This document shows, piece by piece, positions 25,623 through 39,336 of a stretch of DNA of 39,336 nt. The DNA is taken from positions 1 through 39,336 of the forward strand of contig CAVRGP010000005.1 of NCBI GenBank assembly GCA_963720755.1. Direction: 5' to 3'. Each line of letters opens with the position of its first letter. Positions within the stretch are counted from its first letter, which is position 1. Source of the stretch: an uncultured Chloroflexia bacterium. GTDB taxonomy: Bacteria; Chloroflexota; Limnocylindria; Limnocylindrales; CSP1-4. A model generated the notes under the pieces. That model made no database searches, was not told the origin of the DNA, and saw only the letters and a program-made list of their open reading frames with translations. A program made the translations under genes and the position numbers.

Positions 25623-25672
25623 GTGAGCGCGGATCGACGTCGCTGATCGCGACGCGCCGGCGCCTCGCCTCG

Positions 25673-26455
25673 TCAGATCGTCTTCGCGCTGAAGCCCCCG
25701 TCCACGCGAACGATCGAGCCCGTCACGAACCCGGACGCTCGCGCCGACGCGAGCCAGACGGCCGCCCCGACCAGCTCGTCCGCCTCGCCGAGGCGCCCAG
25801 CCGGGGTATGCGCCAGGATCGCTCGAACGCGCTCCTCCGACAGCAGCGCCCGATTCTGCTCGGCAGGAAAGAAGCCCGGCGCGATCGCGTTGACCCGGAC
25901 GCCGCGCGGGGCAAGCTCAGCCGCCAGGTACTGGGTCAGGCTGTTCACTCCGGCCTTCGCGATCGAGTAGGTCGCCACCCTCGACAGTGGCGGGCCGGAC
26001 GATGCGGACGAGATGTTGATGATCGATCCGCCGGACCCGCGGTCGGCCATGGCCTTCCCGAACACCTGGCAGGCGAGGAACACCGACGTGAGGTTTCCGT
26101 CGAGGACCCGATACCACTCATCCAGCCCGATCTCGAAGAACGGCGTCGCGCTGTTCACGCCGGCCGCGTTCACCAGGATGTCCACCGGGCCGAGCCGCGC
26201 CTCGGCCTGTTCCAGGGCGGCCTCCAGCGAGTGCCGATCGGTCGCGTCCACGACGATGGCCGCCGCCTCGGTGCCGTCGTTCGCAAGGGCGGCCCGTCGT
26301 GCCTCGGCTCGCTCAGGCGAACGGCCCATGACCGCGACGGCCGCGCCCGCGGCACCGAGCCCGTGGCACAGCGCGCCCCCGAGGACGCCGGTCCCACCGA
26401 TCACGGCGGCGACGCTCCCGTGCAGGTCGAACCGGTCCGTCGGCGAGGGCTTCAC
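25673..26455 (-). CDS. SDR oxidoreductase (D-mannonate / gluconate-5-dehydrogenase-like), in frame with upstream ackA
   Basis: Motifs GGTGVLG, NAAG, NISS, YSIAK and IAPGFF...QN. It has its own SD GGAGG 6 nt before GTG 26455. Confidence 0.85.
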   Translation of the reverse strand: MKPSPTDRFDLHGSVAAVIGGTGVLGGALCHGLGAAGAAVAVMGRSPERAEARRAALANDGTEAAAIVVDATDRHSLEAALEQAEARLGPVDILVNAAGVNSATPFFEIGLDEWYRVLDGNLTSVFLACQVFGKAMADRGSGGSIINISSASSGPPLSRVATYSIAKAGVNSLTQYLAAELAPRGVRVNAIAPGFFPAEQNRALLSEERVRAILAHTPAGRLGEADELVGAAVWLASARASGFVTGSIVRVDGGFSAKTI

Positions 26456-27616
26456 GCGCGCCCTCCGTGGCCATCCGACGGCGATGCCTGGTCCGCCGAG
26501 GACCGTTCGGACCTCGCGCGCGATCTCGCGGTCCTCTCGAGCGGCGATGACGAGCACCCGGACGGGCGCGCCGTCCGCGCCGATCTCGCGGTCGGCCGGG
26601 CCGGATCCGTTCCGTTCCGCGTCGATCTCAACGCCCAGGAACGCGAGTCCGTCGGCGGCCATCGCCCGGATCACCGGGGCGTGCTCACCGACACCACCCG
26701 TGAAGAGGAGGGCGTCGAGTCCGCCGAGCGAGGCCGCCATGGCCGAGATCTCGGCTCGCAACCGATGGACGTAGACGTCGAGGGCGAGAGTCGCCCGTGG
26801 CTCGCCGGTCTGCGCTCGCTCGATGATGATCCGCATGTCCGCCGTGCCGGCCAGGCCGAGCAGGCCGGACCGATGCTCCAGCGTGGCGGCGAGTTCGGCC
26901 GGCGGCATCCCCACGTGCTCCGCCAGCCAGAGCACCAGACCCGGATCGACGCTACCGGACCGGGTCGCCATGACAAGGCCCTCGAGCGGGGTAAAGCCCA
27001 TCGTCGTGTCGACCGAGATGCCGTCACGGATCGCGGCCAGCGACGCACCGGCACCGAGATGACAGGTGATGACGCGCAGGCCGTCGGCCGGCCGCTGGAG
27101 CAGCTCCGTGGCGCGCCGTGCTGCGTAGGCGTGAGACAAGCCGTGGAACCCGAATCGCCGGAGGTCCCACCGTTTGCGCCACTCGACCGGCAGCGCGTAG
27201 GTCGAGGCGGCCGCCGGCAGCGTGGCATGGAACGCGGTATCGAAGCAGGCGACGGCCGGCACGTCCGGCAGGACGGCCGTCACCGCCGCATACGCCGCGA
27301 GCGACTTGGGCTGGTGGAGCGGGGCGAGGTCGGTGAGGCCCTCGAGACGCTCGATGACGGACGCGTCGATGCGGACCGGCCCGGAGAAGGCAGTGCCCCC
27401 ATGGACGATCCGATGGCCGACGGCGCCGACCGGGCCGAGGTCATGGACGGCGTCCGCGACGGCCGCCGCGTCCGCAGACCCTCGAGGCGCCGCCAGGTCC
27501 GCCGTGGCGACGATCGAATCGTCTGAGTCCAGCACGCGGAGCTTGAGGCTGCTGGACCCTGCGTTCACGACGAGGATCCGGCCGGCGAGCTCCCCGTCGT
27601 CGCCTAGGACGGCCAC
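26456..27616 (-). CDS. ackA: Acetate/propionate kinase (no stop before the SDR in this assembly)
   Basis: Motifs [58 protein letters not shown] and ARED. Confidence 0.9.
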
Positions 27617-30006
27617 ACCCAGTCCGCGATCTCGGGGGCATCCTCGCCGGCGACGCGCGTATAGGCACGCGCCTCGATCCGCTTGTCGACCATCAGCTGA
27701 CGGACGTGACCTGCCCGCGGCCCGAGTCCGGGCACCCGGTCGATCACGTCGATGACGAGGTGGTACCGATCGAGGTCGTTGAGCATGACCATGTCGAACG
27801 GCGTCGTGGTGGTGCCTTCCTCCTTGTAGCCGCGGACGTGGAGGTTCCGATGGTTCGTCCGGCGGTAGGTCAGGCGGTGGATCAGCCAGGGATAGCCGTG
27901 GTAGGCGAAGATCACCGGCTTATCGTTCGTGAACAGGGAGTCGAACTCGGCGTCTGTCGCGCCGTGGGGGTGTTCGGACGTCGGTTGCAGGCGCATCAGG
28001 TCCACGACATTGACGAACCGGATCTTGAGGTCCGGCAAGTGGGTCCGCAGGAGATCCACTGCCGCCAGCGCCTCGAGCGTCGGGACGTCCCCGGCGGACG
28101 CGATGACGACGTCCGGATCGCCACCCTCGTCGTTGCTGGCGAAGTCCCAGATCCCCATCCCGCGCGTGCAATGGAGGATCGCCTCGTCCATCGACAGCCA
28201 GGCGGGAGACGGCTGCTTGCCTGCCACGATGACGTTCACGTACTGACGGCTGCGCAGGCAGTGGTCGGTGACCGACAGCAGGGTGTTCGCATCGGGCGGC
28301 AGGTAGACCCGGATGACGTCGGACTTCTTGTTGACGACGTGGTCGATGAACCCGGGATCCTGGTGGCTGAAGCCGTTGTGGTCCTGGCGCCAGACGAGCG
28401 AACTCAGGAGGTAGTTGAGCGACGCGATCGGTCGTCGCCATGGGATCTCGTCGGTCACCTTCAACCACTTGGCATGCTGATTGAACATCGAATCGACGAT
28501 GTGGATGAACGCCTCGTAGCAGTCGAACAGGCCGTGCCGTCCGGTCAGGAGATAGCCCTCCAGCCAGCCCTGGCACTGGTGCTCGGACAGGACCTCCATC
28601 ACCCGGCCCTCGAGCGCCTGGCCTTCATCGGTCGGCAGGATCTCGGCGTCGAACTGTCGATCGGTGACCTCGAACACCGCGCCGAGTCGATTCGACGACG
28701 TCTCGTCGGGTCCGAACAGCCTGAAGGTCTGGCGATTGCGGTCGATGACGTCGCGGATGAAGGTGCCCACGACCCGGGTCGCCTCGGCGGTCGTGGCACC
28801 GGGAGCCTTGACCTCCACCCCGTAGTCGCGGAAATCCGGCAGCGCCAGCTCGTGCAGGAGGAGGCCGCCGTTGGCGTGTGGGTTCGCACTCATCCGTCGG
28901 TAGCTGTGGGGTGCCAGCTCGGCGAGTTCGGGGATCAACGCGCCCTGCTCGTCGAACAGCTCGTCCGGTCGGTAGCTGCGCAGCCACGTCTCCAGGATGT
29001 CGCGATGCGCGGCGTTCGTGCGAACTTCGCCCATCGGGACCTGGTGGGCACGCCACGTCCCCTCGATCTTCTTGCCCTCGATCTCCTTGGGACCCGTCCA
29101 GCCTTTGGGCGTCCGCAGGATGATCATCGGCCAGCGGGGCCGTTCCGTGACCGAGCCGTCGCGGGCCGCCCGCTGGATCTCGTGGATCTCCTCGATCACG
29201 GTATCCATGACGGCTGCCATCTGCTGATGGACCAAGGCGGGATCGTCGCCCTCGACGACATAAGGATGGTGCCCGTACCCCTCCATCAGGGAGAGCAACT
29301 CCGCCTGCGGGATGCGCGCCAGGACCGTCGGGTTGGCGATCTTGTAGCCGTTCAGATGCAGGATCGGCAGGACGGCCCCGTCGTTGACCGGGTTGAGGAA
29401 CTTGTTCGAATGCCAGCTCGTGGCCAAGGGCCCGGTCTCGGCTTCGCCGTCGCCGACGACACAGCAGACGACGAGGTCGGGGTTGTCGAATGCGGCGCCA
29501 TAGGCATGGGAGAGCGCATAGCCGAGTTCACCGCCTTCGTGGATCGAACCCGGCGTCTCGGGCGCCACGTGACTCGGGATCCCGCCCGGGAACGAGAACT
29601 GGCGGAACAGCTTGCGCATCCCGTCTGCGTCCTGGCTGATGCTCGGGTAGACCTCGCTGTAGGTGCCCTCGAGGTAGGCGTTGGCGACGATCGCCGGACC
29701 ACCGTGGCCCGGCCCGATCACGTAGATGGCGTCGAGGTCCCAGTTCCGGATGACCCGGTTCATATGGGCGTAGATGAAGTTGAGCCCCGGCGTCGTGCCC
29801 CAGTGGCCGAGGAGGCGCGGCTTCGTGTGCTCCGCGAGGAGCGGCTCGCGAAGGAGTGGGTTGTCGAGCAGGTAGATCTGGCCGACCGACAGGTAGTTGG
29901 CGGCCCGCCAGTACGCGTCGATCCGGGCGAGGTCGGTGGCCGAAAGCGGACCCGCAGCGGCCGTCGCGGCACCGTCCGTTCGGTCGGCGTGTTCGTCCGT
30001 CTGCAT
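27604..30006 (-). CDS. xfp: Xylulose-5-phosphate/fructose-6-phosphate phosphoketolase
   Basis: Motifs [27 protein letters not shown]...[14 protein letters not shown] and [14 protein letters not shown]. Confidence 0.96.
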
Positions 30007-30130
30007 CGCGGTCTCCTTGGCATCGCCGGTCTCGTGTCCAGCTCGAGTCTAGGAGCCTCCGGATCACCGCGTCGGCCGGCGGATCGCGGCGCCAGGTCCT
30101 TCGTTCCCGTGCCATCCAGGATCGATGGCT

Positions 30131-32521
30131 TCATTCGCCCTGGAGGATCGGTGCGATCGGCGCGCGCGCTGCTCGCTGCGCCGGGAGATAGGCGCCCACC
30201 GCGGCGATCGCAAGCCCGACGAGGGACAACGCGACGATGGTCAGTGGAGTGAAGACGTCGAAAGTGACCGCTGCGACGCGCGTCTCGGCGGCGACCTGGC
30301 CCATATAGCCGAGCGCGATCCGTTGGAGTGCCATCCCGACCGGCACGCCGACGAGGCCGGCGACCAGCCCGACCGGCACCACGGAGGCGACGACCATCGT
30401 CACGACCTGGCGTGGCGTCATCCCGACGGCCTTCAGGATCGCCATATCGTGAGCCCGTTGTCTCGTCTCCAGGACGACGACGTCGAAGACACCGGCGATC
30501 GAGACAGCCACGAGGACGAACCCCATCGTGGCGACGACGGACAGGAACAGCAGGAAGCCAGTGTCGAGGGAACTGTCGAACGTCCGAGTCACGGCCCGTC
30601 CACGGAGTCCCTGCTCGAGCTGGTTGGCGTAGACGCCCGGCGAGGTTTCGGCGACCGGCTGGATCTCCCAGCTGGAGGGACGCGCGGTCGGGTCGAGGGC
30701 GAGCACATCGGCCCAGCTGCCGCGCAGGAACACGTGGTCGGCGACACCTTCGGCCGTATCGAAGATCTCCCCGACAAGACGCTCGGTGATCGATCGATCG
30801 CCGAGCGAGAGCGTGATCGTGTCGCCGACTTCGAGGCCGGCTCGGCTGAACAGGCTCGACGTTGCGACGACCTCGCCGGGACCCTGGAACCAGCGCCCGG
30901 AGATCACCGCGTAGCCCACCCAGCTCGCGTCGCCGTCGTAGCCGACGAACGGGATGGCCCCGAGGCCGGGCACGTTGGCGTGGACCTGGCCGAGGCCGAC
31001 CGATCGAGCCGTGTCCGATCGCGCGGCGATGATCGATCCGATCGACGCCGGATCGGCCGCTGGATCGACCTGTTCCACGCGGACCGGGCTGTCTGCGCTC
31101 CGGTCGGTCTGGGTCTTCACCCGCACGAGTGAGAGGTCGAGGCCGAGCGCGAACGTCATCGATGCGACGCCGACGATGAGGGCACCGAGGGTCATCGCGG
31201 CCCGGATCGGATGCGATACCCCGAGGGCGATGCCCAGCCGGGAAGGAAGACCGACCCGCATGCGCAGTCCGGCACGACGCAGGCGACCACCGTCGTGGCC
31301 GAGCGATGGCGCCGTCCCGCGGGTGATGGCGGCCACGGTGCTCAGCCGTCCCGCCTTGAGCGCCGGCACGACGGCGGAGATCGTCGAGACGAGGATCGCG
31401 AACATCGGCACGACCACGACGACCGACCAATCCGGAGTGAACGTTCGGGGAAGTCCGAAGGAGGACGCCGTGTCGCCGACGATGGGTCCGCTGGCAACGG
31501 TTCCGGCGATCGCACCCGCGATGGAGCCGACGACCACCGGCACGAGGATCTGGCCGACAAGGGTCGACGTCACCTGACCCGGGGTGAACCCGACCGCCTT
31601 CATCACCCCGATGTCGCGATAGCTGGTGAGGATGATGCCGCTCACGACGTTGGCGATCGTGAATGCGGCCGCGAGCAGCGCGAATATCGAGAACGCGAGC
31701 AACACGGGGACGTACAGCTGGGCGATCCGATCGACGCCTGTCTTGATCTGAAGATAGGTCGAAGCGCTCGCGACGGCGTCGGCCGGAAGGTCCGCGGTGA
31801 TCGCCGTCACAGCGGCTGACAGGTCAGCTGCGGTCGCCGCTGGTGCGACGCGATACAGCATCTGCTGGTGCAGGCCCTGGCCACCGACGGCCAGTGCGGC
31901 GACATCGCCCGGGCTCATCCAGGCGGCGACGTCCGGCGTACTGACCGACGCGGCGATCCCGACGACGGCCAGTCGGAGAGTCGGGACGCGGTTCGGTGCG
32001 CCGGATCCCGGATCGGGCGGCAGCTGGTCCATTGTCCCGGGTGTCGCTGATCGGTAGAAACCGATCTCCTGTCCGAGCGAGGCGCCGAGCATCGCGGCCG
32101 TATCACGATCGAGGACGACCTCGCCGGGCATGGCCCACCACCGGCCGGCGCTGATCGTCACCCGATCGATGGAGTCCCCCGGCGTCGGTCGCCCGGATAC
32201 GGTTTGGCCGTCGATCTGCCCGAACGTGCCGGGCACCGCGGCGATCGTGACCGGCCACGGGCCCGCGCTGGCGGTGACGGCGCTGGTCGTCGCGGTCTTG
32301 GCCAGGAGCGCGTTGTCGACCGATCCGTCGTAGTCGATCACGAGATGCGCACCGTTCGCACTCGCAAAGGCTCGTTGGAATGGCTCGTGCGTCTCGGCCA
32401 GGACGCTGAGTGCGAGCGTGGCCGCACCCGCTGCCAGGAACAGGACGATCGCGAGGATGGAGGACTGCAGCCGTCGGTGTCGCAGGTCTGCCAGCGTCTT
32501 GGCGGCGACGGCTCCCATCAC
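30131..32521 (-). CDS. ABC transporter permease, FtsX/MacB-like (duplicated)
   Basis: Two FtsX-type TM blocks (IGVMKAVGFT, MAILKAVGMT) and extracytoplasmic domains with GRW motifs. Confidence 0.9.
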   Translation of the reverse strand: MMGAVAAKTLADLRHRRLQSSILAIVLFLAAGAATLALSVLAETHEPFQRAFASANGAHLVIDYDGSVDNALLAKTATTSAVTASAGPWPVTIAAVPGTFGQIDGQTVSGRPTPGDSIDRVTISAGRWWAMPGEVVLDRDTAAMLGASLGQEIGFYRSATPGTMDQLPPDPGSGAPNRVPTLRLAVVGIAASVSTPDVAAWMSPGDVAALAVGGQGLHQQMLYRVAPAATAADLSAAVTAITADLPADAVASASTYLQIKTGVDRIAQLYVPVLLAFSIFALLAAAFTIANVVSGIILTSYRDIGVMKAVGFTPGQVTSTLVGQILVPVVVGSIAGAIAGTVASGPIVGDTASSFGLPRTFTPDWSVVVVVPMFAILVSTISAVVPALKAGRLSTVAAITRGTAPSLGHDGGRLRRAGLRMRVGLPSRLGIALGVSHPIRAAMTLGALIVGVASMTFALGLDLSLVRVKTQTDRSADSPVRVEQVDPAADPASIGSIIAARSDTARSVGLGQVHANVPGLGAIPFVGYDGDASWVGYAVISGRWFQGPGEVVATSSLFSRAGLEVGDTITLSLGDRSITERLVGEIFDTAEGVADHVFLRGSWADVLALDPTARPSSWEIQPVAETSPGVYANQLEQGLRGRAVTRTFDSSLDTGFLLFLSVVATMGFVLVAVSIAGVFDVVVLETRQRAHDMAILKAVGMTPRQVVTMVVASVVPVGLVAGLVGVPVGMALQRIALGYMGQVAAETRVAAVTFDVFTPLTIVALSLVGLAIAAVGAYLPAQRAARAPIAPILQGE

Positions 32522-33210
32522 CCCGCCCGCCGCACGGCGTCGTCCCCGGTGATCCGACCGTCGACGAGTCGAACGATCCGATGCGCTCGAGCCGTGGCCA
32601 GCGCCTCGTCGTGGGTCACGAGGATGATGGTCTGCCCGCGACGATTCAGATCCTCGAGGAGCGCCAGCGCCAGGTCGCCGTTGTGTCGGTCGAGCGCACC
32701 CGTCGGCTCGTCGGCCAGCAGCACCGCCGGGCGATTGACGATGGCGCGCGCGATGGCCGCGCGTTGTCGCTCACCCCCGCTCAGCGTGGCCGGGAATCGG
32801 CGGGATCTGTCGCCGAGTCCGAGCTGGCCGAGGAGCTCCGCCACGGACCGTTCCGTCTCTTCCCGGGAACGCCCGGAGAGGAGGGCCGGGATGGCAACGT
32901 TGTCGGAGACGCTCAGATCCTCGAGCAGGTGGAAGAACTGGAACACGAAACCGACGTTCGTCCGACGAAATCGAGCGGCACCGGTTTCGCTCAACCGATC
33001 GACCCGGACGCCGTCGACGACGATCTCGCCACTGCTCGGACGGTCGAGACCGCCGATCACATTCAGCAGCGTCGACTTGCCGCCGCCGGACGGACCCATG
33101 ATCGCGGTGATCCGTCCTGGCTCGACATCGAGGTCGATGCGGTCGAGCGCAGGGAGCGGCGAACCGTCGTAGCGCTTGGTCACGCCGCGGAGCGAGATGA
33201 GTGGTGGCAT
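32518..33210 (-). CDS. ABC transporter ATP-binding protein (LolD/MacB-like)
   Basis: Walker A GPSGGGKST, LSGGERQR, LLADEPTGALD and VTH. ATG 33210 follows AGGAG. Confidence 0.95.
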   Translation of the reverse strand: MPPLISLRGVTKRYDGSPLPALDRIDLDVEPGRITAIMGPSGGGKSTLLNVIGGLDRPSSGEIVVDGVRVDRLSETGAARFRRTNVGFVFQFFHLLEDLSVSDNVAIPALLSGRSREETERSVAELLGQLGLGDRSRRFPATLSGGERQRAAIARAIVNRPAVLLADEPTGALDRHNGDLALALLEDLNRRGQTIILVTHDEALATARAHRIVRLVDGRITGDDAVRRAG

Positions 33211-33263
33211 GGTCGGTCTCCTGTGTCGAGGCCCCGACGTTGTCACCACGACCCACGGGTTCA

Positions 33264-33360
33264 CATCCGCCGTGGGGTGGGATGCGACCCAGCCGAACGG
33301 ATGACCGGTCAGCGACTTCCGCCGTTCGGATGAGCTTCCATCCCTCTCGCGGCGGAGGGA
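33264..33360. promoter_or_regulatory. Putative response-regulator binding repeats between ABC and TCS operons
   Basis: GCGAC...CGGATGA occurs twice (33284-33304, 33312-33333), plus inverted repeats CATCC-N11-GGATG and TCCCTC-N8-GAGGGA. Confidence 0.5.
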
Positions 33361-33390
33361 CCGCGGGTCAGTTGCGGCTACAGTTGCGCG

Positions 33391-34575
33391 ATGGCCGAGG
33401 AGACCGTTCGAACGCCCATCGACGTGCCGCCGCCGGATCGGCGCTGGCTCGAGTGGCTCCAGGCGCTCGGCCCCGTGGTCGTCCTCGTCGCGATCGGGCT
33501 GGTGACCCAGGACCGGCCGCGGTCCGGTGGTCTCGAGGCCACGATCGTGCTCGTCGTCCTGCCACTGGTCGTCCGACGCGTCTTCCCGCTCGCGGTCCTC
33601 GTCACCGTGGCGGTCGGATCGCTGTTGACGGCCGCCGGTTCGCCCGCGCCCTGGATCCAGGTCTGCGCGGTGGGGTTGGCGAGCTACACGTTCGGAGGAC
33701 GAGCCGAGAGCCGGACGGGCTCTGGCCTGGCCGTGATCGCCGTGGCCTCGGGCATGGCGGTCGGTTTCATGGCACAGGACGCGAGCGCGATGCTCGGGTT
33801 GGTCCTGCCGTTCGTCGTGGTCGTCCCGACGTGGCTGATCGGAGACCTGGTTCGGTCGCGCCGGATCGAGTCCGAGCGGCGGGCAGAGGCAGCGGAGCGA
33901 TCCGTACGTGAGCGAGAGGAGCGCCTTCGGGTCGCCGCCGCCGAGGAGCGGCGTCACGTCGCCCGCGAGCTCCATGACGTGGTGGCTCACGCCGTCAGCG
34001 TGATGGTGATCCAGGCCGGAGCGGCACGTCAGGTCGTGAGGACGTCGCCCGAGCAGGCTGAAGCGTCGCTGCTCGCGGTCGAATCGACCGGCCGTCAGGC
34101 GATGACCGAACTGCGTCGCTTCCTGGGGGCGTTGAGCGACGAGGACGAAGCTGCCGGTCTGGCTCCGCAGCCGGGGATGAGCGAGCTGGAGAGCCTGCTG
34201 TCCCGCGTCCGTGCGGCGGGACTCCCGGCGTCGCTCGAGGTCGATGGTATGCCGCGCCCGGTCCCCACCTCGCTCGACATGACGATCTATCGCATCGTCC
34301 AGGAGGCGCTCACGAATGCGCTCCGCTATGCGCGCCAGGCGACGACCCTTGTCCGGTTGACGTGGGAGCCGGACCAGCTCCGCCTCGAGGTCCTCGACGA
34401 TGGCCCGCCGACGCCTGACGCGAGCGATGGCAGCGGCCGCGGCCTGACCGGGATGCGCGAACGGGCGTCGCTGGTCGGAGGTCGACTCGAGGCCGGGCCG
34501 AGGGTCGGTGGCGGCTATGCGGTCCGGGCCTGGCTCCCCCTGGACCGTGTGTCTCTCGAGGCTGATTGTTCATGA
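33391..34575 (+). CDS. Membrane sensor histidine kinase (HisKA_3)
   Basis: ERRHVARELHDVVAH, YRIVQEALTN, DDG and GRGL.GMRER; TM N-terminus. Confidence 0.95.
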   Translation: MAEETVRTPIDVPPPDRRWLEWLQALGPVVVLVAIGLVTQDRPRSGGLEATIVLVVLPLVVRRVFPLAVLVTVAVGSLLTAAGSPAPWIQVCAVGLASYTFGGRAESRTGSGLAVIAVASGMAVGFMAQDASAMLGLVLPFVVVVPTWLIGDLVRSRRIESERRAEAAERSVREREERLRVAAAEERRHVARELHDVVAHAVSVMVIQAGAARQVVRTSPEQAEASLLAVESTGRQAMTELRRFLGALSDEDEAAGLAPQPGMSELESLLSRVRAAGLPASLEVDGMPRPVPTSLDMTIYRIVQEALTNALRYARQATTLVRLTWEPDQLRLEVLDDGPPTPDASDGSGRGLTGMRERASLVGGRLEAGPRVGGGYAVRAWLPLDRVSLEADCS

Positions 34576-35288
34576 CCGATCGCCGGTTGCGGGTGCTCGT
34601 CGCCGACGATCAGGCCCTGGTGAGAGCTGGGTTCCGGTTGATCCTCGAGGCCCAACCGGACATCACGGTCGTCGCCGAGGCGGCCGAAGGCGATTCCGCG
34701 GTCAGACTGGCTCGTCGGCATCGACCGGACGTCGTCCTGATGGACATCCGGATGCCCGGTCTCGATGGGCTCGAAGCCACTCGTCGCCTGCTCGCCCCGA
34801 CCGACGATGGACGGGTCACCCTGGAGGTGGCGCCCCGGGTCGTCATCCTGACCACGTTCGACCTCGACGAGTACGTCTACGCGGCGCTCCAGGCGGGTGC
34901 GTCGGGCTTCCTGCTCAAGGACGGTTCCCCTGAACATCTGGTCGCCGCGGTCCGTACCGTGGCGCTCGGCGACGCGCTTCTCGACCCGACCATCACTCGT
35001 CGCCTCGTGGAGCGATATGCGCACCCGCCGGCAGCCCCCGACGTCGCCCTGCACGCCATCGCCGAGCTCACGGTTCGCGAGACCGACGCGTTCTACCTCG
35101 TCGCTCGAGGGATGAGCAACGCCGAGATCGCCGAGGCGCTCGTGGTCAGCGAAGCGACCGTCAAGACGCATGTCGCATCGATCCTCGCGAAGCTTGGGGT
35201 CCGCAATCGCGCGCAGGCGGTCGTGTACGCCTACGAATCCGGCCTCGTGACCGCAGGCGCCCCGCTTCCGACGGCCACGCCCCGCTGA
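34572..35288 (+). CDS. NarL/LuxR-family response regulator
   Basis: VADDQ, LMDIRMP, FLLK and HTH SNAEIAEALVVSEATVKTHV; ATGA overlap with the kinase. Confidence 0.95.
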   Translation: MTDRRLRVLVADDQALVRAGFRLILEAQPDITVVAEAAEGDSAVRLARRHRPDVVLMDIRMPGLDGLEATRRLLAPTDDGRVTLEVAPRVVILTTFDLDEYVYAALQAGASGFLLKDGSPEHLVAAVRTVALGDALLDPTITRRLVERYAHPPAAPDVALHAIAELTVRETDAFYLVARGMSNAEIAEALVVSEATVKTHVASILAKLGVRNRAQAVVYAYESGLVTAGAPLPTATPR

Positions 35289-37090
35289 TGGGAGCAACGA
35301 CGCGCAGCAGATGGATCGCCCCGCTGCTCGTCGTCCTCCTGGTCGCTGCCTGTACTCCGGCGAGCCCGACGCCGTCACCCGCGACACCGACCGAGAAGAG
35401 CGGATCGGCATCGGCGACACCGACCGAACCGATCGCGTCGGCATCCTCGACACCATCGTCGCGTCCGGCGTTCGATGCCTCGGGTCGACCCCTCGTCTGG
35501 TTCGCGCCGCTCGGGCCACGGGCCGATCACCACGGCTACGGTGGGGCCAACGACTTCTACGACCTGTTCGAGCCGGGAGCGCCATGGCCGACGGCCGTCG
35601 CCGACGTCGATGTCTTCCAGGTCTACGGCACCTGGGTCACCCACTACTCCACCGACGACGAACTCACCCGTGTCATCGACGGCGTCGCCGAGCGAGGACT
35701 CGGTCTCGGCCTGGAAGTCGGTCCGCTCACGGGGACGAACGAATGCGAACAGGGCGAGGGTTGGGCAGCCGACGAAAGCCTCGATGTCGTCCGCCGGATC
35801 CAGGCGCACGGTGGCCGGGTCGATGTCGTCGCGCTCGACGAGCCGTATGCCTTCGGCCACGTGGCGACGAGTGATCGGTCGTGCCTGTACCCGGTCGATC
35901 GGGTCGCCCGCGAGGTTGCCGGGTTCGTGGCCGATCTTCGGGTTCTCGAGCCCGACGTGATCGTCGGGGATGTCGAGCCGATGTGGTCGGACATCACACC
36001 CGACGACATGGCCGCGTGGATCGATGCGTACGCGACCGCTGCGGGTGAGCCGTTCGCGTTCCTTCATCTCGACGCCGACTGGACCCGCGCCGACTGGGCG
36101 GAGGCGCTCCTGGCGACCGAGCAAGTGTGCCGTGATCAAGGCGTCCCGTTCGGGATCATCTACAACGGCGGCGACGCGCCCTCGGACGAGGAGTGGACCC
36201 GACTCGCGATGGACCGTGCGGTCCACTACGAGGAGGAGACGGGTGGTCGGCCCGACCACGTCGTGTTCCAGTCGTGGTTCGACCACCCGGATCGCGTGCT
36301 GCCGGACACCGACGTGACGACGTTCACAGGCTTGATCGCTCAGTACTCCGGAGCCCGGACCGAGATCGCGGTCGACCAGCTGGGTTCCGCTCGTGCCAGG
36401 GTGATCGAGGTCAGCGGCGCGGTCACCGTAGCCGGGCGGGCGGTCGGTGGAGCCAGCTTGACGATGAGCGCAACCCCGCTCGACGGGGCCAGACAGGAGT
36501 TGACCCTGGCCGGCCAGGTCCCCGCTGGGGCGAGCCACGCGGTGGTCGGCATTCGAGCGAATACCGAAGATGCGGGCCCGGGTCCGATCGACATCGAGTT
36601 GTACCGGTTGAGCTACCAGGAAGCGGTGGATGGGACGAATCTGGTCCCGAACCCGCGGTTCGCCGCCGGGCTCGATCATTGGGGCATCACCGGTTCCGGA
36701 TCGGCCAAACTCGTGGCCAGCGACTCGGGTCCGGGCCGAGCGCTGCAACTCGCGGGGTCCGCGACACGATGGCTCAGCATCGACTCCGGCGAATTCGCGG
36801 TGACGCCGGGGGCTCGCTTCGAACTGAACGCCCTCGTCAGCGTGCCGGCGTCATCTGCCGCCAGCGCCTATGCCGCCGTGATCTTCCTCGGCCCGACCGA
36901 GCTCGCACGCGAACGACTTCCGCTCGAACCGCGTGCGATCGTGCTCGGCACGGTGGCGAGCGACGCGGAGGGCCGGTTCCAGGGGATCGGCGAGGACCTT
37001 CCTGCCGGGCGCTACCGCGTCCGTATCGACGATCGCGGAAGCGCCCAGCGTTGGCCGGCCCGTTGGTCTCAGGAGGTTCTCGTCCGCTGA
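35288..37090 (+). CDS. Lipoprotein with glycoside-hydrolase-like barrel and CBM-like/Ig-like C-terminus
   Basis: Lipobox VAAC, Ser/Pro/Thr linker, VALDEP, FLHLD, VVFQSW and NLVPNPRF..GL..W. TGATG overlap with the response regulator. Confidence 0.65.
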   Translation: MGATTRSRWIAPLLVVLLVAACTPASPTPSPATPTEKSGSASATPTEPIASASSTPSSRPAFDASGRPLVWFAPLGPRADHHGYGGANDFYDLFEPGAPWPTAVADVDVFQVYGTWVTHYSTDDELTRVIDGVAERGLGLGLEVGPLTGTNECEQGEGWAADESLDVVRRIQAHGGRVDVVALDEPYAFGHVATSDRSCLYPVDRVAREVAGFVADLRVLEPDVIVGDVEPMWSDITPDDMAAWIDAYATAAGEPFAFLHLDADWTRADWAEALLATEQVCRDQGVPFGIIYNGGDAPSDEEWTRLAMDRAVHYEEETGGRPDHVVFQSWFDHPDRVLPDTDVTTFTGLIAQYSGARTEIAVDQLGSARARVIEVSGAVTVAGRAVGGASLTMSATPLDGARQELTLAGQVPAGASHAVVGIRANTEDAGPGPIDIELYRLSYQEAVDGTNLVPNPRFAAGLDHWGITGSGSAKLVASDSGPGRALQLAGSATRWLSIDSGEFAVTPGARFELNALVSVPASSAASAYAAVIFLGPTELARERLPLEPRAIVLGTVASDAEGRFQGIGEDLPAGRYRVRIDDRGSAQRWPARWSQEVLVR

Positions 37091-37137
37091 CGCTCGGCAC
37101 GCCCCTGCGCTGACAGGCGCAGACCTGCAACGCGGAC

Positions 37138-38056
37138 CTAGGCGAGGATCGTCCCCCGAGTCGGCAGGATTTCGCCGATCCGGTCGAGCACCTCGAGGAA
37201 GCCCTGGAGCGGCGGTGGGAGCAGACCGGCTGACGGCCGATGCACTGCCACGATCCGGCGGCGTGTCGGAGCGACACCGGCGATCGGCACCGCCCGAAGG
37301 TCGCCTCGGGCGATGTCGCTGGCGATCGCAGTAAGTGGCAGGAAGGCCACGCCGAGGCCGTCTCTGACCATGTGCTTCGCTGCTTCGATGTTGTCGAGTT
37401 CGATCGTGCTCCGCGGTACCACCCCGGAGGCTCGGAAGATCGCGTTGGTCAGGTCGTAGTAACTCGACGTCCGGTCGAAGAGGATCAAGGTCGAAATCCG
37501 CGAGACGGTCGACGCCGATCGGATCGGGACCCGCGAATTCATGATGAGCAGGGACGACCAGGATGAGTTCGTCCTCGTACAGGGGTCGCGCGATCACGCC
37601 CGGGCGATGGAGCTCCCGGATGAGCCCGATGTCGAGCTCGTTGCGCTCGACCTGCTCGACGATCTCTTCCGAATGGCCGGTCCGAACGATGAGTCGAACG
37701 CCCTCGAAACGCTGGACGAACCGGGTCAGGATCCCAGGCAGAACGTAGGCGCCGACCGCTGGGGCTGTCCCGATCGTCAACTGCCCGGTGATCCCTCGGG
37801 CGTGCTCACGCACCTGGCCCCGCCCCGCATCCAGGGACTGTATCGCGCGATCCGCGTACGGCATGAAGGCGCGACCGGCGTTCGTGAGTCGCATCCCTCG
37901 ATTCGACCGCTCGAACAACGGAGTACCGAGCTCCTCCTCGAGCAGTCTGATCCGTGCCGTGAGCGCGGGTTGTGTGACGAGCAGGGCCGTCGCTGCCCGG
38001 CTCAGGTTTTGTTGACGCGCGATCTCGAGAAAGCCCTCGATCTGGGTGATCAGCAT
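37138..38056 (-). CDS. LysR-family transcriptional regulator (1-nt frameshift near 37495)
   Basis: HTH NLSRAATALLVTQPALT..IRLLEEELG. The substrate domain continues in another frame (STLILFDRTSSYY...ELDNIEAAKHMVRDGLGVAFLP). Removing one A from AAA 37494-37496 restores a single ORF. Confidence 0.88.
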
Positions 38057-38071
38057 GGAATATCCCAAGGC

Positions 38072-38116
38072 ATCACTTAGATTGATGGACATATCATATC
38101 AATCGATTGGACTGAT
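38072..38116. promoter_or_regulatory. LysR binding sites (three ATC-N9-GAT boxes)
   Basis: ATC-N9-GAT (T-N11-A) at 38072-38086, 38093-38107 and 38102-38116 in an AT-rich island. Candidate -35/-10 TGGACT-N17-CAGAAT (38108-38136). Confidence 0.65.
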
Positions 38117-38162
38117 GGGCAGGCGGACGGCAGAATCAACCTCCCTTCGAAGGAGGCTTCTC

Positions 38163-38357
38163 ATGTACCAGCTGCCGGAACCCATTCGCTCGTCGCGCGA
38201 GCTGCTCGATCGCGGGGTCCAGACCCCCGGCTTGACGGTCGTCACGTGGACCACGTTCGGCCCACGGCTCGCCTGGCCACCGACGCCACGATCGCAAGCC
38301 GAGACGGCCGAATGCACCTGCCCGACCGATTGCATCCGCGATCACGAGAACGAGTGA
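38163..38357 (+). CDS. 64-aa small protein with C-terminal CxCxxxCxxDH motif
   Basis: Perfect SD AAGGAGG (38150-38156) 6 nt before the ATG. The protein ends [15 protein letters not shown], and its stop overlaps an in-frame ICL GTG (GTGA). Confidence 0.7.
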
Positions 38358-39336
38358 TCGACTCGATCCCCACGATGACCACGACGCCTGTCGTCAGCGA
38401 TCCGCACGACGCGATCGTCGATCCGGAGATCGCTGAGACCCAGGATTGGTTGGACAGCCCGCGCTTCGACGGGATCACCCGACTGCATAGCGCTCGTCAG
38501 GTGGCCGAACAGCGAGGCACGATCCGGACCGACTCCGTGGTCGCCCGTGACGCGGCGACGGCGTTCTACGATCGTTTGCGCGAGCTGTTCTCGGAGCGGC
38601 GTTCGATCACCACATTCGGCCCCTACTCACCGGGTCAGGCGGTCATCATCAAGCGCCTGGGGATCGAGGGCATCTACCTCGGCGGATGGGCGACGTCGGC
38701 CAAGGGATCGGCGGCGGAGGACCCGGGGCCGGATCTCGCCAGCTACCCGCTGTCGCAGGTGCCCGACGAGGCTGCCGCCCTGGTTCGGGCCCTGCTCACG
38801 GCCGACCGCAACCAGCACTTCCTTCGGTCACGCATGCCGCCTGAGCAGCGGGCAGCCACGCCGTCCGTCGACTACCGACCATTCATCATCGCCGACGCCG
38901 ACACCGGCCACGGCGGCGACCCCCACGTTCGCAACCTCATCCGGCGGTTCGTCGAGGCCGGCGTACCCGGGTACCACATCGAGGATCAGCGGCCCGGCAC
39001 CAAGAAATGCGGTCACCAGGGGGGCAAGGTGCTGGTGTCGTCCAGCGAGCAGATCAAGCGTCTCAATGCCGCGCGGTTCCAGCTGGACGTGATGGGCGTG
39101 CCCGGGATCATCGTGGCTCGGACCGACGCCGAGTCGGCGAGCCTGCTCGAATTGCGGGGAGACGAGCGCGACCAGCCGTTCATCCTGGGTGTCACGAACC
39201 TGTCGGTGCCGTCGTACAAGGTCGCCTATCTCAGCCTGCTCCGGCGCTTCCACGACATCGGGATCGAGGAACTCAACGGGCATCGCGCCTATGCGATCAG
39301 CGACGACGAATACCGAGTCGCCGACGCCTGGGCGGA
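38354..39336 (+). CDS. aceA: Isocitrate lyase, mycobacterial ICL2-type (3' truncated by window end)
   Basis: Manual translation gives [72 protein letters not shown] and ARTDAE. It is absent from the ORF track because it has no stop. Start is GTG 38354 or ATG 38375. Confidence 0.93.

Follow-up and report, generated by a model that had tools for sequence, protein, structure and literature searches.

In Escherichia coli, uof-fur, TnaC and SpeFL represent translationally coupled leader open reading frames (ORFs) and termination-stage arrest peptides. Small Cys/His peptides form a second group of described systems and include zinc knuckles, haloarchaeal zinc-finger microproteins, the ZAS motif HxxxCxxC and the Cys-Pro heme-regulatory motifs. 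The glyoxylate shunt, which governs the choice between keeping and burning the carbon that comes from acetate or lipids, has its own controls in the kinase AceK and in IclR and RamB; to our knowledge, no microprotein stands beside the kinase, the transcription factors and the allostery by which this pathway is regulated. A fourth point of comparison is given by the polycysteine leaderless short ORFs of mycobacteria, which one preprint presents as cysteine-responsive attenuators (bioRxiv 10.1101/834739). Here a short ORF (sORF) that invites comparison with all of these is described from an uncultured Chloroflexia bacterium (Limnocylindria; Limnocylindrales; CSP1-4). It occupies 38163..38357 on the forward strand of contig CAVRGP010000005.1 (GenBank assembly GCA_963720755.1), whose 39,336 nucleotides, analysed whole, are called the window throughout, and it lies between a divergent LysR-type regulator gene and the gene for isocitrate lyase 2 (ICL2). 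The sORF is a member of an undescribed microprotein family linked to the glyoxylate shunt, a family that is probably a helper or regulator of that pathway, unstudied until now. Its likely kind is either an operon-embedded Cys/His microprotein or a coupled leader.

The sORF begins with ATG at 38163, ends with TGA at 38355-38357 after 64 codons, and specifies a product (P0001) that opens MYQLPEPIR. A perfect Shine-Dalgarno (SD) sequence, AAGGAGG at 38150..38156 on the forward strand, precedes the start codon with a 6-nt spacer, and SD-like purine runs lie 3-11 nt 5' of the chosen start in most relatives. A sequence-only reading of the window had described this ORF, its SD and a tail in which Cys and His are clustered, and all three are there: the pattern is C51-x-C53-x3-C57-x3-H61, the product holds no other Cys or His, and the four residues fall within its last 14. 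Neither ORF length nor the SD lifts the sORF beyond chance, since a 64-codon ORF alone is within chance expectation in a window of 68.5% G+C where chance ORFs are many, and the same window holds 5 copies of AAGGAGG where 2.1 would be expected. Conservation does. A six-frame peptide search of 201 same-family genomes returned 30 loci, 23 of them with an ORF that ends C-x-C-P-x-x-C-x-R-D-H-x-N-E-stop; all 23 follow a divergent LysR gene and 20 precede ICL2. The motif ORF is missing from the other seven loci (L022, L023, L026, L029-L032), which were set aside as chance matches. Together with a phylum-wide sample and a genome collection, this search provided the alignment A2 of 71 unique Chloroflexota-type loci in which the sORF is kept.

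Across A2, residues C51, C53, P54, C57, R59, D60 and H61 are invariant in 71/71 rows, and all of them lie in the last 17 codons (38304..38354, forward strand), whose consensus is [A-E-x-x-E]-C-x-C-P-x-x-C-x-R-D-H-x-N-E-stop and which are probably the functional part of the family. The codons of this tail change synonymously (GAA/GAG, TGC/TGT, CCC/CCG/CCT, CGG/AGG/CGC), and mean entropy at codon positions 1, 2 and 3 is 0.50, 0.51 and 0.93, respectively. Pooled over 17 non-overlapping pairs by the method of Nei and Gojobori (NG86), the ratio of nonsynonymous to synonymous substitution (dN/dS) is 0.18 in the tail and 0.51 in the N-terminal part, which is thus also below 1, with per-pair values of the N-terminal part from 0.12 to 1.4. 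Products are 61-64 amino acids long in 51 of the 71 loci, and the stop codons are TGA (51), TAG (17) and TAA (3). The sORF is a genuine protein-coding gene, and the claim that its Cys/His tail is the conserved part holds over the 71 loci by homologue search and dN/dS alike. Read instead as no gene at all, the sORF would be a chance ORF of high-G+C DNA, a conserved DNA or RNA element such as an operator or the ribosome-binding site of ICL2, or an alternative frame of ICL2. Long chance ORFs are indeed plentiful at this base composition, and the tail codons GAGAACGAG are purine-rich and sited where the ribosome-binding site of an overlapping start would be. The substitution pattern is nonetheless that of a coding frame, down to CGG/AGG changes at Arg, and the downstream gene stands in all three relative frames and belongs to different families; moreover, TGA, TAG and TAA are all used, so that neither selenocysteine nor read-through explains the end of the frame, and no fused form is among the matches listed. 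Codon-level conservation refutes the non-gene reading for practical purposes, and its probability is negligible.

The family to which the sORF belongs is large and nameless. A word-indexed search with a 23-row profile returned 567 clusters, the best 120 of which carry no Pfam domain and no name beyond 'hypothetical protein'; an exhaustive hidden Markov model search of 1.84 billion representatives returned 416 clusters (50% identity) at E<=1e-3. The best 150 of these 416 representatives are 35-88 amino acids long, and in every one the match ends no more than 2 residues from the C-terminus, while the N-terminal parts of family members differ in both length and sequence. Fusion to, or read-through into, ICL2 was rejected, as the 150 matches listed include no fused or extended form and all three stop codons are used. 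A 379-residue 'member' of one cluster (P0288) lacks the tail motif altogether and appears not to be a relative. The ESM Atlas holds unnamed Chloroflexota clusters alone, no description of such a peptide was found in the literature searched, and the family has no match in the Pfam, NCBIfam and PDB libraries searched.

Among related genome loci, 50 of 52 are from Chloroflexota, mostly Candidatus Limnocylindrales or Limnocylindria, and in a 401-genome sample of the phylum a match is present in 21 genomes over several families. Within the 201-genome family sample, isocitrate lyase (PF00463, E<=1e-20) is found in 25 genomes, 24 of which also have the sORF, and the one lyase-bearing genome without it (G157) is 64% complete; the sORF itself is found in 39 of the 201 (G139 included). 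These genomes are related rather than independent and the co-occurrence carries no statistical claim, but the patchy distributions of sORF and lyase coincide. The genes are also physically tied, as had been proposed: a divergent LysR gene precedes the sORF in 64/71 loci, where the sORF is the first cistron after LysR, and an ICL-family gene comes next in most. The next same-strand gene is ICL2 in 49 loci, an ICL-like lyase of ~390 amino acids in 12 and malate synthase in 8, with none found in 2, and the malate-synthase-first loci continue into ICL2. In genome G270 there are two sORF copies (L051, L055), each before its own lyase gene and with its own LysR. What did not survive is the idea that the link is specific to ICL2, because the peptide also precedes malate synthase-ICL2, a lyase with the signature KRCGH, or ICL1, follows malate synthase, or stands alone. 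The window genome has one malate synthase elsewhere (C11), with no sORF beside it, and no AceK kinase domain was found in this genome, which is 93.6% complete.

The ~390-residue proteins, members of the ICL/phosphoenolpyruvate-mutase family, follow the sORF at L039, L042, L045-L053, L104, L106 and L172, in several Chloroflexota families. KRCGH is present in 3/3 of those checked (L045, L050, L104), in place of the KKCGH of the ICL2 in the window, and five that were scanned with NCBIfam reach neither the isocitrate lyase cut-off nor that of PrpB.

Downstream of the sORF, the 5' part of ICL2 occupies 38375..39336 on the forward strand (PF00463, 5.4e-69) and exits the window; the complete gene is on another contig of the assembly (C12:12706-15033) and encodes 775 amino acids. 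Residues 7-772 align with the solved 'Isocitrate lyase 2' 6edw at 1191.9 bits and KKCGH is present, and on this alignment the downstream gene is a true full-length ICL2 with its C-terminal regulatory domain. The locus thus shares with the known shunt controls both the pathway and an enzyme of the regulated kind. Acetyl-CoA activates ICL2, and in Mycobacterium tuberculosis it is the C-terminal domain that mediates the activation, according to one paper (PMC6788997).

The junction between the two genes is tight. The sequence-only reading had noted that the sORF stop overlaps a GTG in the ICL2 frame (GTGA; the GTG is at 38354..38356, forward strand) and that ICL2 has no SD of its own, and both features are seen; the GTG is the less likely start, however, because, in an alignment, ICL2 of the nearest relatives begins at the position of ATG 38375, which is in the same frame and 17 nt 3' of the sORF stop (L056, MTTSAAVSDP...; L059, L060 and L067, which start at +18). 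No GGAGG-like or other SD-like run precedes this ATG. Candidate starts of the next gene were taken as far upstream as possible and are not proven ones. The candidate overlaps the stop of the sORF (ATGA/GTGA) in 28/71 loci; in 25 others it is at +2..+30, in 10 at +31..+100 and in 1 farther away, and in 5 none was found. The predicted tight junction, with the stop on the candidate start or no more than ~30 nt from it, is seen in 53/71. At six loci (L069, L070, L073, L076, L091, L101) an ICL2 read from the ATGA overlap gains 20-35 residues that open with MTPxTxxTAT, and this shared opening suggests that translation of ICL2 in that clade does begin at the overlap.

Such an arrangement raises the question of whether the sORF acts merely in cis, as a leader whose translation, perhaps with pausing at the stop codon, sets the loading of ribosomes onto ICL2, malate synthase, ICL1 or GntR, the tail being an arrest or sensor sequence in the exit tunnel with no folded site. 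We hold this to be a possible account, well short of a likely one. An ICL-family or malate synthase gene lies directly 3' on the same strand in 69/71 Chloroflexota-type loci, the next start overlaps the stop or follows at +2..+30 in the numbers given above, ICL2 in the window is without an SD, a conserved promoter-like block sits just 5' of the sORF, and G270 provides one sORF and one LysR per lyase. To this can be added that, in the 150 representatives listed, the final ~17 residues keep a constant spacing to the stop codon, with N-termini that vary. The likeness to leader and arrest peptides comprises a short 5' ORF, a stop at or beside the next start, and residues fixed relative to the stop. 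There are also differences: the family is also found mid-operon, last and alone, there is no attenuator RNA, and the Cys3His set is invariant, which is not known as a feature of arrest peptides. In addition, the N-terminal dN/dS is 0.51 rather than 1, and short or overlapping operon junctions are common anyway.

The regulatory region of the window bears on the same question. The LysR-type regulator is encoded at 37138..38056 on the reverse strand (HTH_1, 6e-20; LysR_substrate, 5.7e-24), with a likely start at ATG 38056 (MLITQ...), and its start-codon column is conserved in the alignment of upstream regions. HTH_1 and substrate domains, divergent orientation and a T-N11-A box between the genes are all present, as expected of the LysR class, and the regulator would presumably bind that box, an inverted repeat ATC-N9-GAT (38072..38086) that resembles the box of LysR-type transcriptional regulators (LTTRs) and lies inside the 106-nt divergent intergenic region; when the 130-nt upstream regions are aligned, the block ATCnnT...TGAT proves to be conserved. 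Nearer the sORF is a conserved promoter-like block (38104..38136, forward strand) consisting of CGATTGGAC at 38104-12, a -35-like TTGGAC at 38107-12 and a -10-like CAGAAT at 38131-36, with an 18-nt spacer between the hexamers and an implied 5' untranslated region (UTR) of ~20-25 nt. Both CGATTGGAC and a hexamer of the TAnnGT type are kept upstream of the sORF across genera, even in distant families of the phylum. A strict sigma-70 scan returned 0 promoter sites, and 38072-38136 is best regarded as a candidate LTTR operator and promoter on the strength of its conservation. As for RNA, an Rfam scan of 37900-38600 gave 0 matches at E<=1, no terminator-like site lies between sORF and ICL2 (of the two hits, one is at 37984-38003 in lysR and the other covers the SD on the minus strand), and shuffled sequences fold as well as do the 5' UTR and the stop/start junction (z-scores 0.62 and 0.20). 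An attenuator RNA between the sORF and the next gene is not to be expected, because overlapping or 17-nt junctions leave no room for one, and the absence of a terminator or structured RNA counts against a leader of the cis-acting kind.

Two features of the assembly touch these genes. The window is the entire contig C5 of a 3.0-Mb genome in 15 contigs, and its positions 25669-39336 are duplicated at C12:1-13667 (13.7 kb, 99.44% identity, 75 mismatches and 1 gap). The shared 13.7 kb look as if the assembler had kept two strain haplotypes apart. None of the 76 differences falls inside 38163-38357, the sORF being identical in both copies, and 51 of the 76 crowd into 25841-26630. Contigs from two soil-metagenome runs (X1, X2) span the sORF without indels and carry a single synonymous C>G change within it, at 38273 (GCC to GCG). 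In both C5 and C12 an extra T in a T-run (37489-37494, near 37494) splits the lysR frame; one base is missing at 37494 from contigs of three soil-metagenome runs (X1, X2, X4), which makes the broken frame an error of assembly and the regulator gene intact rather than a pseudogene.

A sister branch of the family, with the tail ...TAELAECTCPDFCERDHDNE, broadens the picture considerably. The NCBI records of three cluster members place it in Gaiellaceae, and the sister-type sORF is present in 8/101 genomes of the order of genome G578 (Gaiellales). Its peptides are very acidic, and the equivalents of C51, C53, C57 and H61 are invariant in all 15 rows of their alignment (A3). Gene context was taken from 80 metagenome loci with flanks of 1.5-4 kb scanned. 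The sORF stands between a divergent LysR gene and malate synthase, with or without ICL1 beyond, in 12/80; before ICL1, with or without malate synthase beyond, in 17/80; between a divergent LysR gene and an ICL-like gene in 1/80; and after malate synthase, with or without ICL1 ahead of it, in 20/80, mostly followed by a GntR/FCD regulator. In 4/80 it precedes GntR with too little upstream sequence, in 8/80 it faces a convergent gene for a MalK-type ABC ATPase 11-220 nt away, in 14/80 it has other neighbours (glycosyl hydrolase in 4, an AMP-binding enzyme, a pyridine-nucleotide oxidoreductase ~400 nt off, a transposase, unknown), and 4/80 are too short to tell. The order of G578 adds the arrangements ICL1-sORF-malate synthase (L195, L197) and malate synthase-sORF-GntR (L191). 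In the 8 stand-alone loci no gene lies 3' of the sORF on the same strand to be regulated in cis. These loci, together with the mid-operon copies and those that follow malate synthase, argue against a leader acting in cis, and they divide the verdict on the leader peptide that had first been proposed: it suits the window and the Chloroflexota-type loci, where the sORF is the first ORF, and it does not suit a family that is also mid-operon, last and monocistronic.

The starts of the sister-type genes are of two kinds. Where the sORF follows malate synthase, the malate synthase stop is succeeded by GGAGGA and then by the start codon of the sORF. Where the sORF precedes ICL1 or stands alone, its ATG comes 6-7 nt after a -10-like TAGGAT flanked by GGATCC boxes, a promoter layout that looks leaderless. 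Repeated GGATCC boxes (TTGGATCC ... TAGGATCCGAGA-ATG) are seen at L114, L119, L126, L129, L136, L142, L144, L156, L164 and others, and their presence before both sORF-ICL1 operons and lone sORFs suggests that one regulator may serve them all. The leaderless look, with TAGGAT 6-7 nt before the ATG, is also a feature that this branch shares with the mycobacterial polycysteine sORFs as the preprint presents them (bioRxiv 10.1101/834739). Set against that account, the Cys residues here are not consecutive (C-x-C-x3-C in a conserved context of P, R, D and H), the neighbours are ICL, malate synthase, LysR and GntR genes rather than cysteine genes, and the copy in the window has a strong SD. The idea that a genome places one and the same sensor leader ahead of many of its operons was considered and rejected, as 8/8 positive genomes among the 101 are single-copy by the A3 profile.

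Two sORF copies are seen in G270 and G578 and nowhere else. G578 pairs a Limnocylindria-type sORF-ICL2 on a 4.7-kb contig with a sister-type sORF-ICL1 behind a divergent LysR gene (L189, L190), and that 4.7-kb contig may be mis-binned. At L195 (G581:C2), an ORF that stops a single base ahead of the sORF start codon closes with CPSCGFSG...HCSCGHVFETER; it lies between ICL1 and the sORF and would encode another small protein that is rich in Cys and zinc-ribbon-like.

The sister branch also provides the nearest approach to a named domain. Locally, 4/15 of its peptides match Pfam DUF6907 (PF21848), with CPDWCERDH against profile positions 12-25; the E-values are 0.04-0.1 (best 0.037), and P0208 reaches 13.7 bits (E 0.096) against a gathering cut-off of 26 bits. 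In DUF6907 the stretch is N-terminal within a domain of 116 positions, none of the 71 A2 peptides matches, and of 61 genomes searched in the order of G578, 3 have marginal matches. On these scores the relation is a lead only, below the level of membership.

Given the company that the sORF keeps, its product might act in trans on a transcription factor (LysR, GntR/FCD or whatever binds the GGATCC boxes) as an anti-regulator or a co-sensor of metal or redox state. A divergent LysR gene in 64/71 loci would fit, as would GntR/FCD directly 3' in at least 18 metagenome loci (by Pfam) and at L191 (by tblastn), the marked acidity of the sister-branch peptides, and the single layout of GGATCC boxes and leaderless promoter common to stand-alone and ICL1-linked copies. 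Yet the type of regulator varies between LysR, GntR and none seen, whereas every type of shunt-linked cassette has an ICL-family gene, and the f18 loci have no LysR gene inside 1.5 kb. A regulator as the target is thus unlikely.

In our preferred but still tentative reading, to which we grant slightly less than an even chance, the sORF product is a trans-acting Cys3His microprotein co-produced with ICL-family lyases. In the window, the sORF would be the first cistron of a LysR-controlled sORF-ICL2 transcript. Ribosomes that end the sORF would start ICL2 17 nt on, or at the GTG, and both products would be made together; a dependence of ICL2 translation on that of the sORF is suggested by the strong sORF SD, the lack of an ICL2 SD and the 17-nt or overlapping junction. 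The peptide itself would be the active product and would act in trans, a reading favoured over a pure cis leader because the sORF is first, mid-operon, last or alone beside shunt genes. With three Cys and one His inside 11 residues, the peptide would most likely bind a single metal ion (Zn, Fe or Cu) or work as a thiol switch. The most likely partner would be the ICL-family lyase, with activity or stability tuned to metal or redox state, and the lyase is preferred as partner because it is the sole kind of gene in every type of shunt-linked cassette. Bolder is the proposal that the tail is a sensor of metal, redox or glyoxylate status and acts as a direct switch on ICL-family lyases or, in bacteria that lack AceK, on the isocitrate branch point; this we consider speculative and rather improbable.

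Four invariant potential ligands in a short span, as in a generic Cys3His knuckle, are found in 71/71 A2 and 15/15 A3 peptides. Four potential ligands in 11 residues, an invariant Cys-Pro, small size and the lack of any other fold are likenesses to the Cys/His metal-binding peptides; the spacing C-x-C-P-x2-C-x3-H is not known from any of them, and the ligands here are putative, read from sequence. Several observations weigh against a trans-acting, metal-binding microprotein. Pfam and NCBIfam scans of the family gave no match, and its profile gave 0 matches to PDB sequences at E<=10. AlphaFold2 returned no confident fold for the window type (mean predicted local distance difference test, or pLDDT, 57.6) and a locally moderate one for the sister type (mean 72.0, with 80-86 at residues 31-50, around the motif), and a Foldseek search of the sister-type model against PDB gave 0 matches. 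Variant tails outside A2 have lost a ligand (L055, C53 to R) or the Arg (L049, R59 to V). The start codons in A2 were picked by a heuristic based on SD-like runs. The strict C-terminal placement of the motif, among the 150 matches listed, and a start codon at or near the stop resemble arrest peptides. Finally, 22/80 metagenome loci have no shunt gene within the flanking sequence. A predicted complex of ICL2 (A4) with the sORF product (A2), run without controls, scored 0.00 and is evidence neither way.

Small size, a variable N-terminus and a strict C-terminal core are also seen in the precursors of modified peptides or peptide-derived cofactors such as PqqA and MftA, and the C-terminal core of the sORF product could in principle be a substrate of that kind. 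The neighbours in the flanks scanned (1.5-4 kb) are ICL, malate synthase, LysR, GntR, leuS, an ABC ATPase and others, and Pfam and NCBIfam found no radical-SAM enzyme, peptidase or cyclase among them, which leaves a precursor very improbable.

The family is tied to the genes for isocitrate lyase and malate synthase in two abundant, mostly uncultured soil phyla. If the peptide binds metal or switches thiols on the lyase, it would represent a new route from metal or redox state to central carbon flux. If the tail is indeed a sensor, the shunt would be controlled at the level of protein by a regulator of a new kind, kept stoichiometric with its enzyme by start-stop coupling, and a Cys3His microprotein of this sort would be common to soil Chloroflexota and Gaiellales. 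If, alternatively, the nascent chain is the sensor, the family would provide a rare metabolic arrest peptide outside model organisms. Under either reading, a peptide of 64 residues and a cassette of three genes are directly testable.

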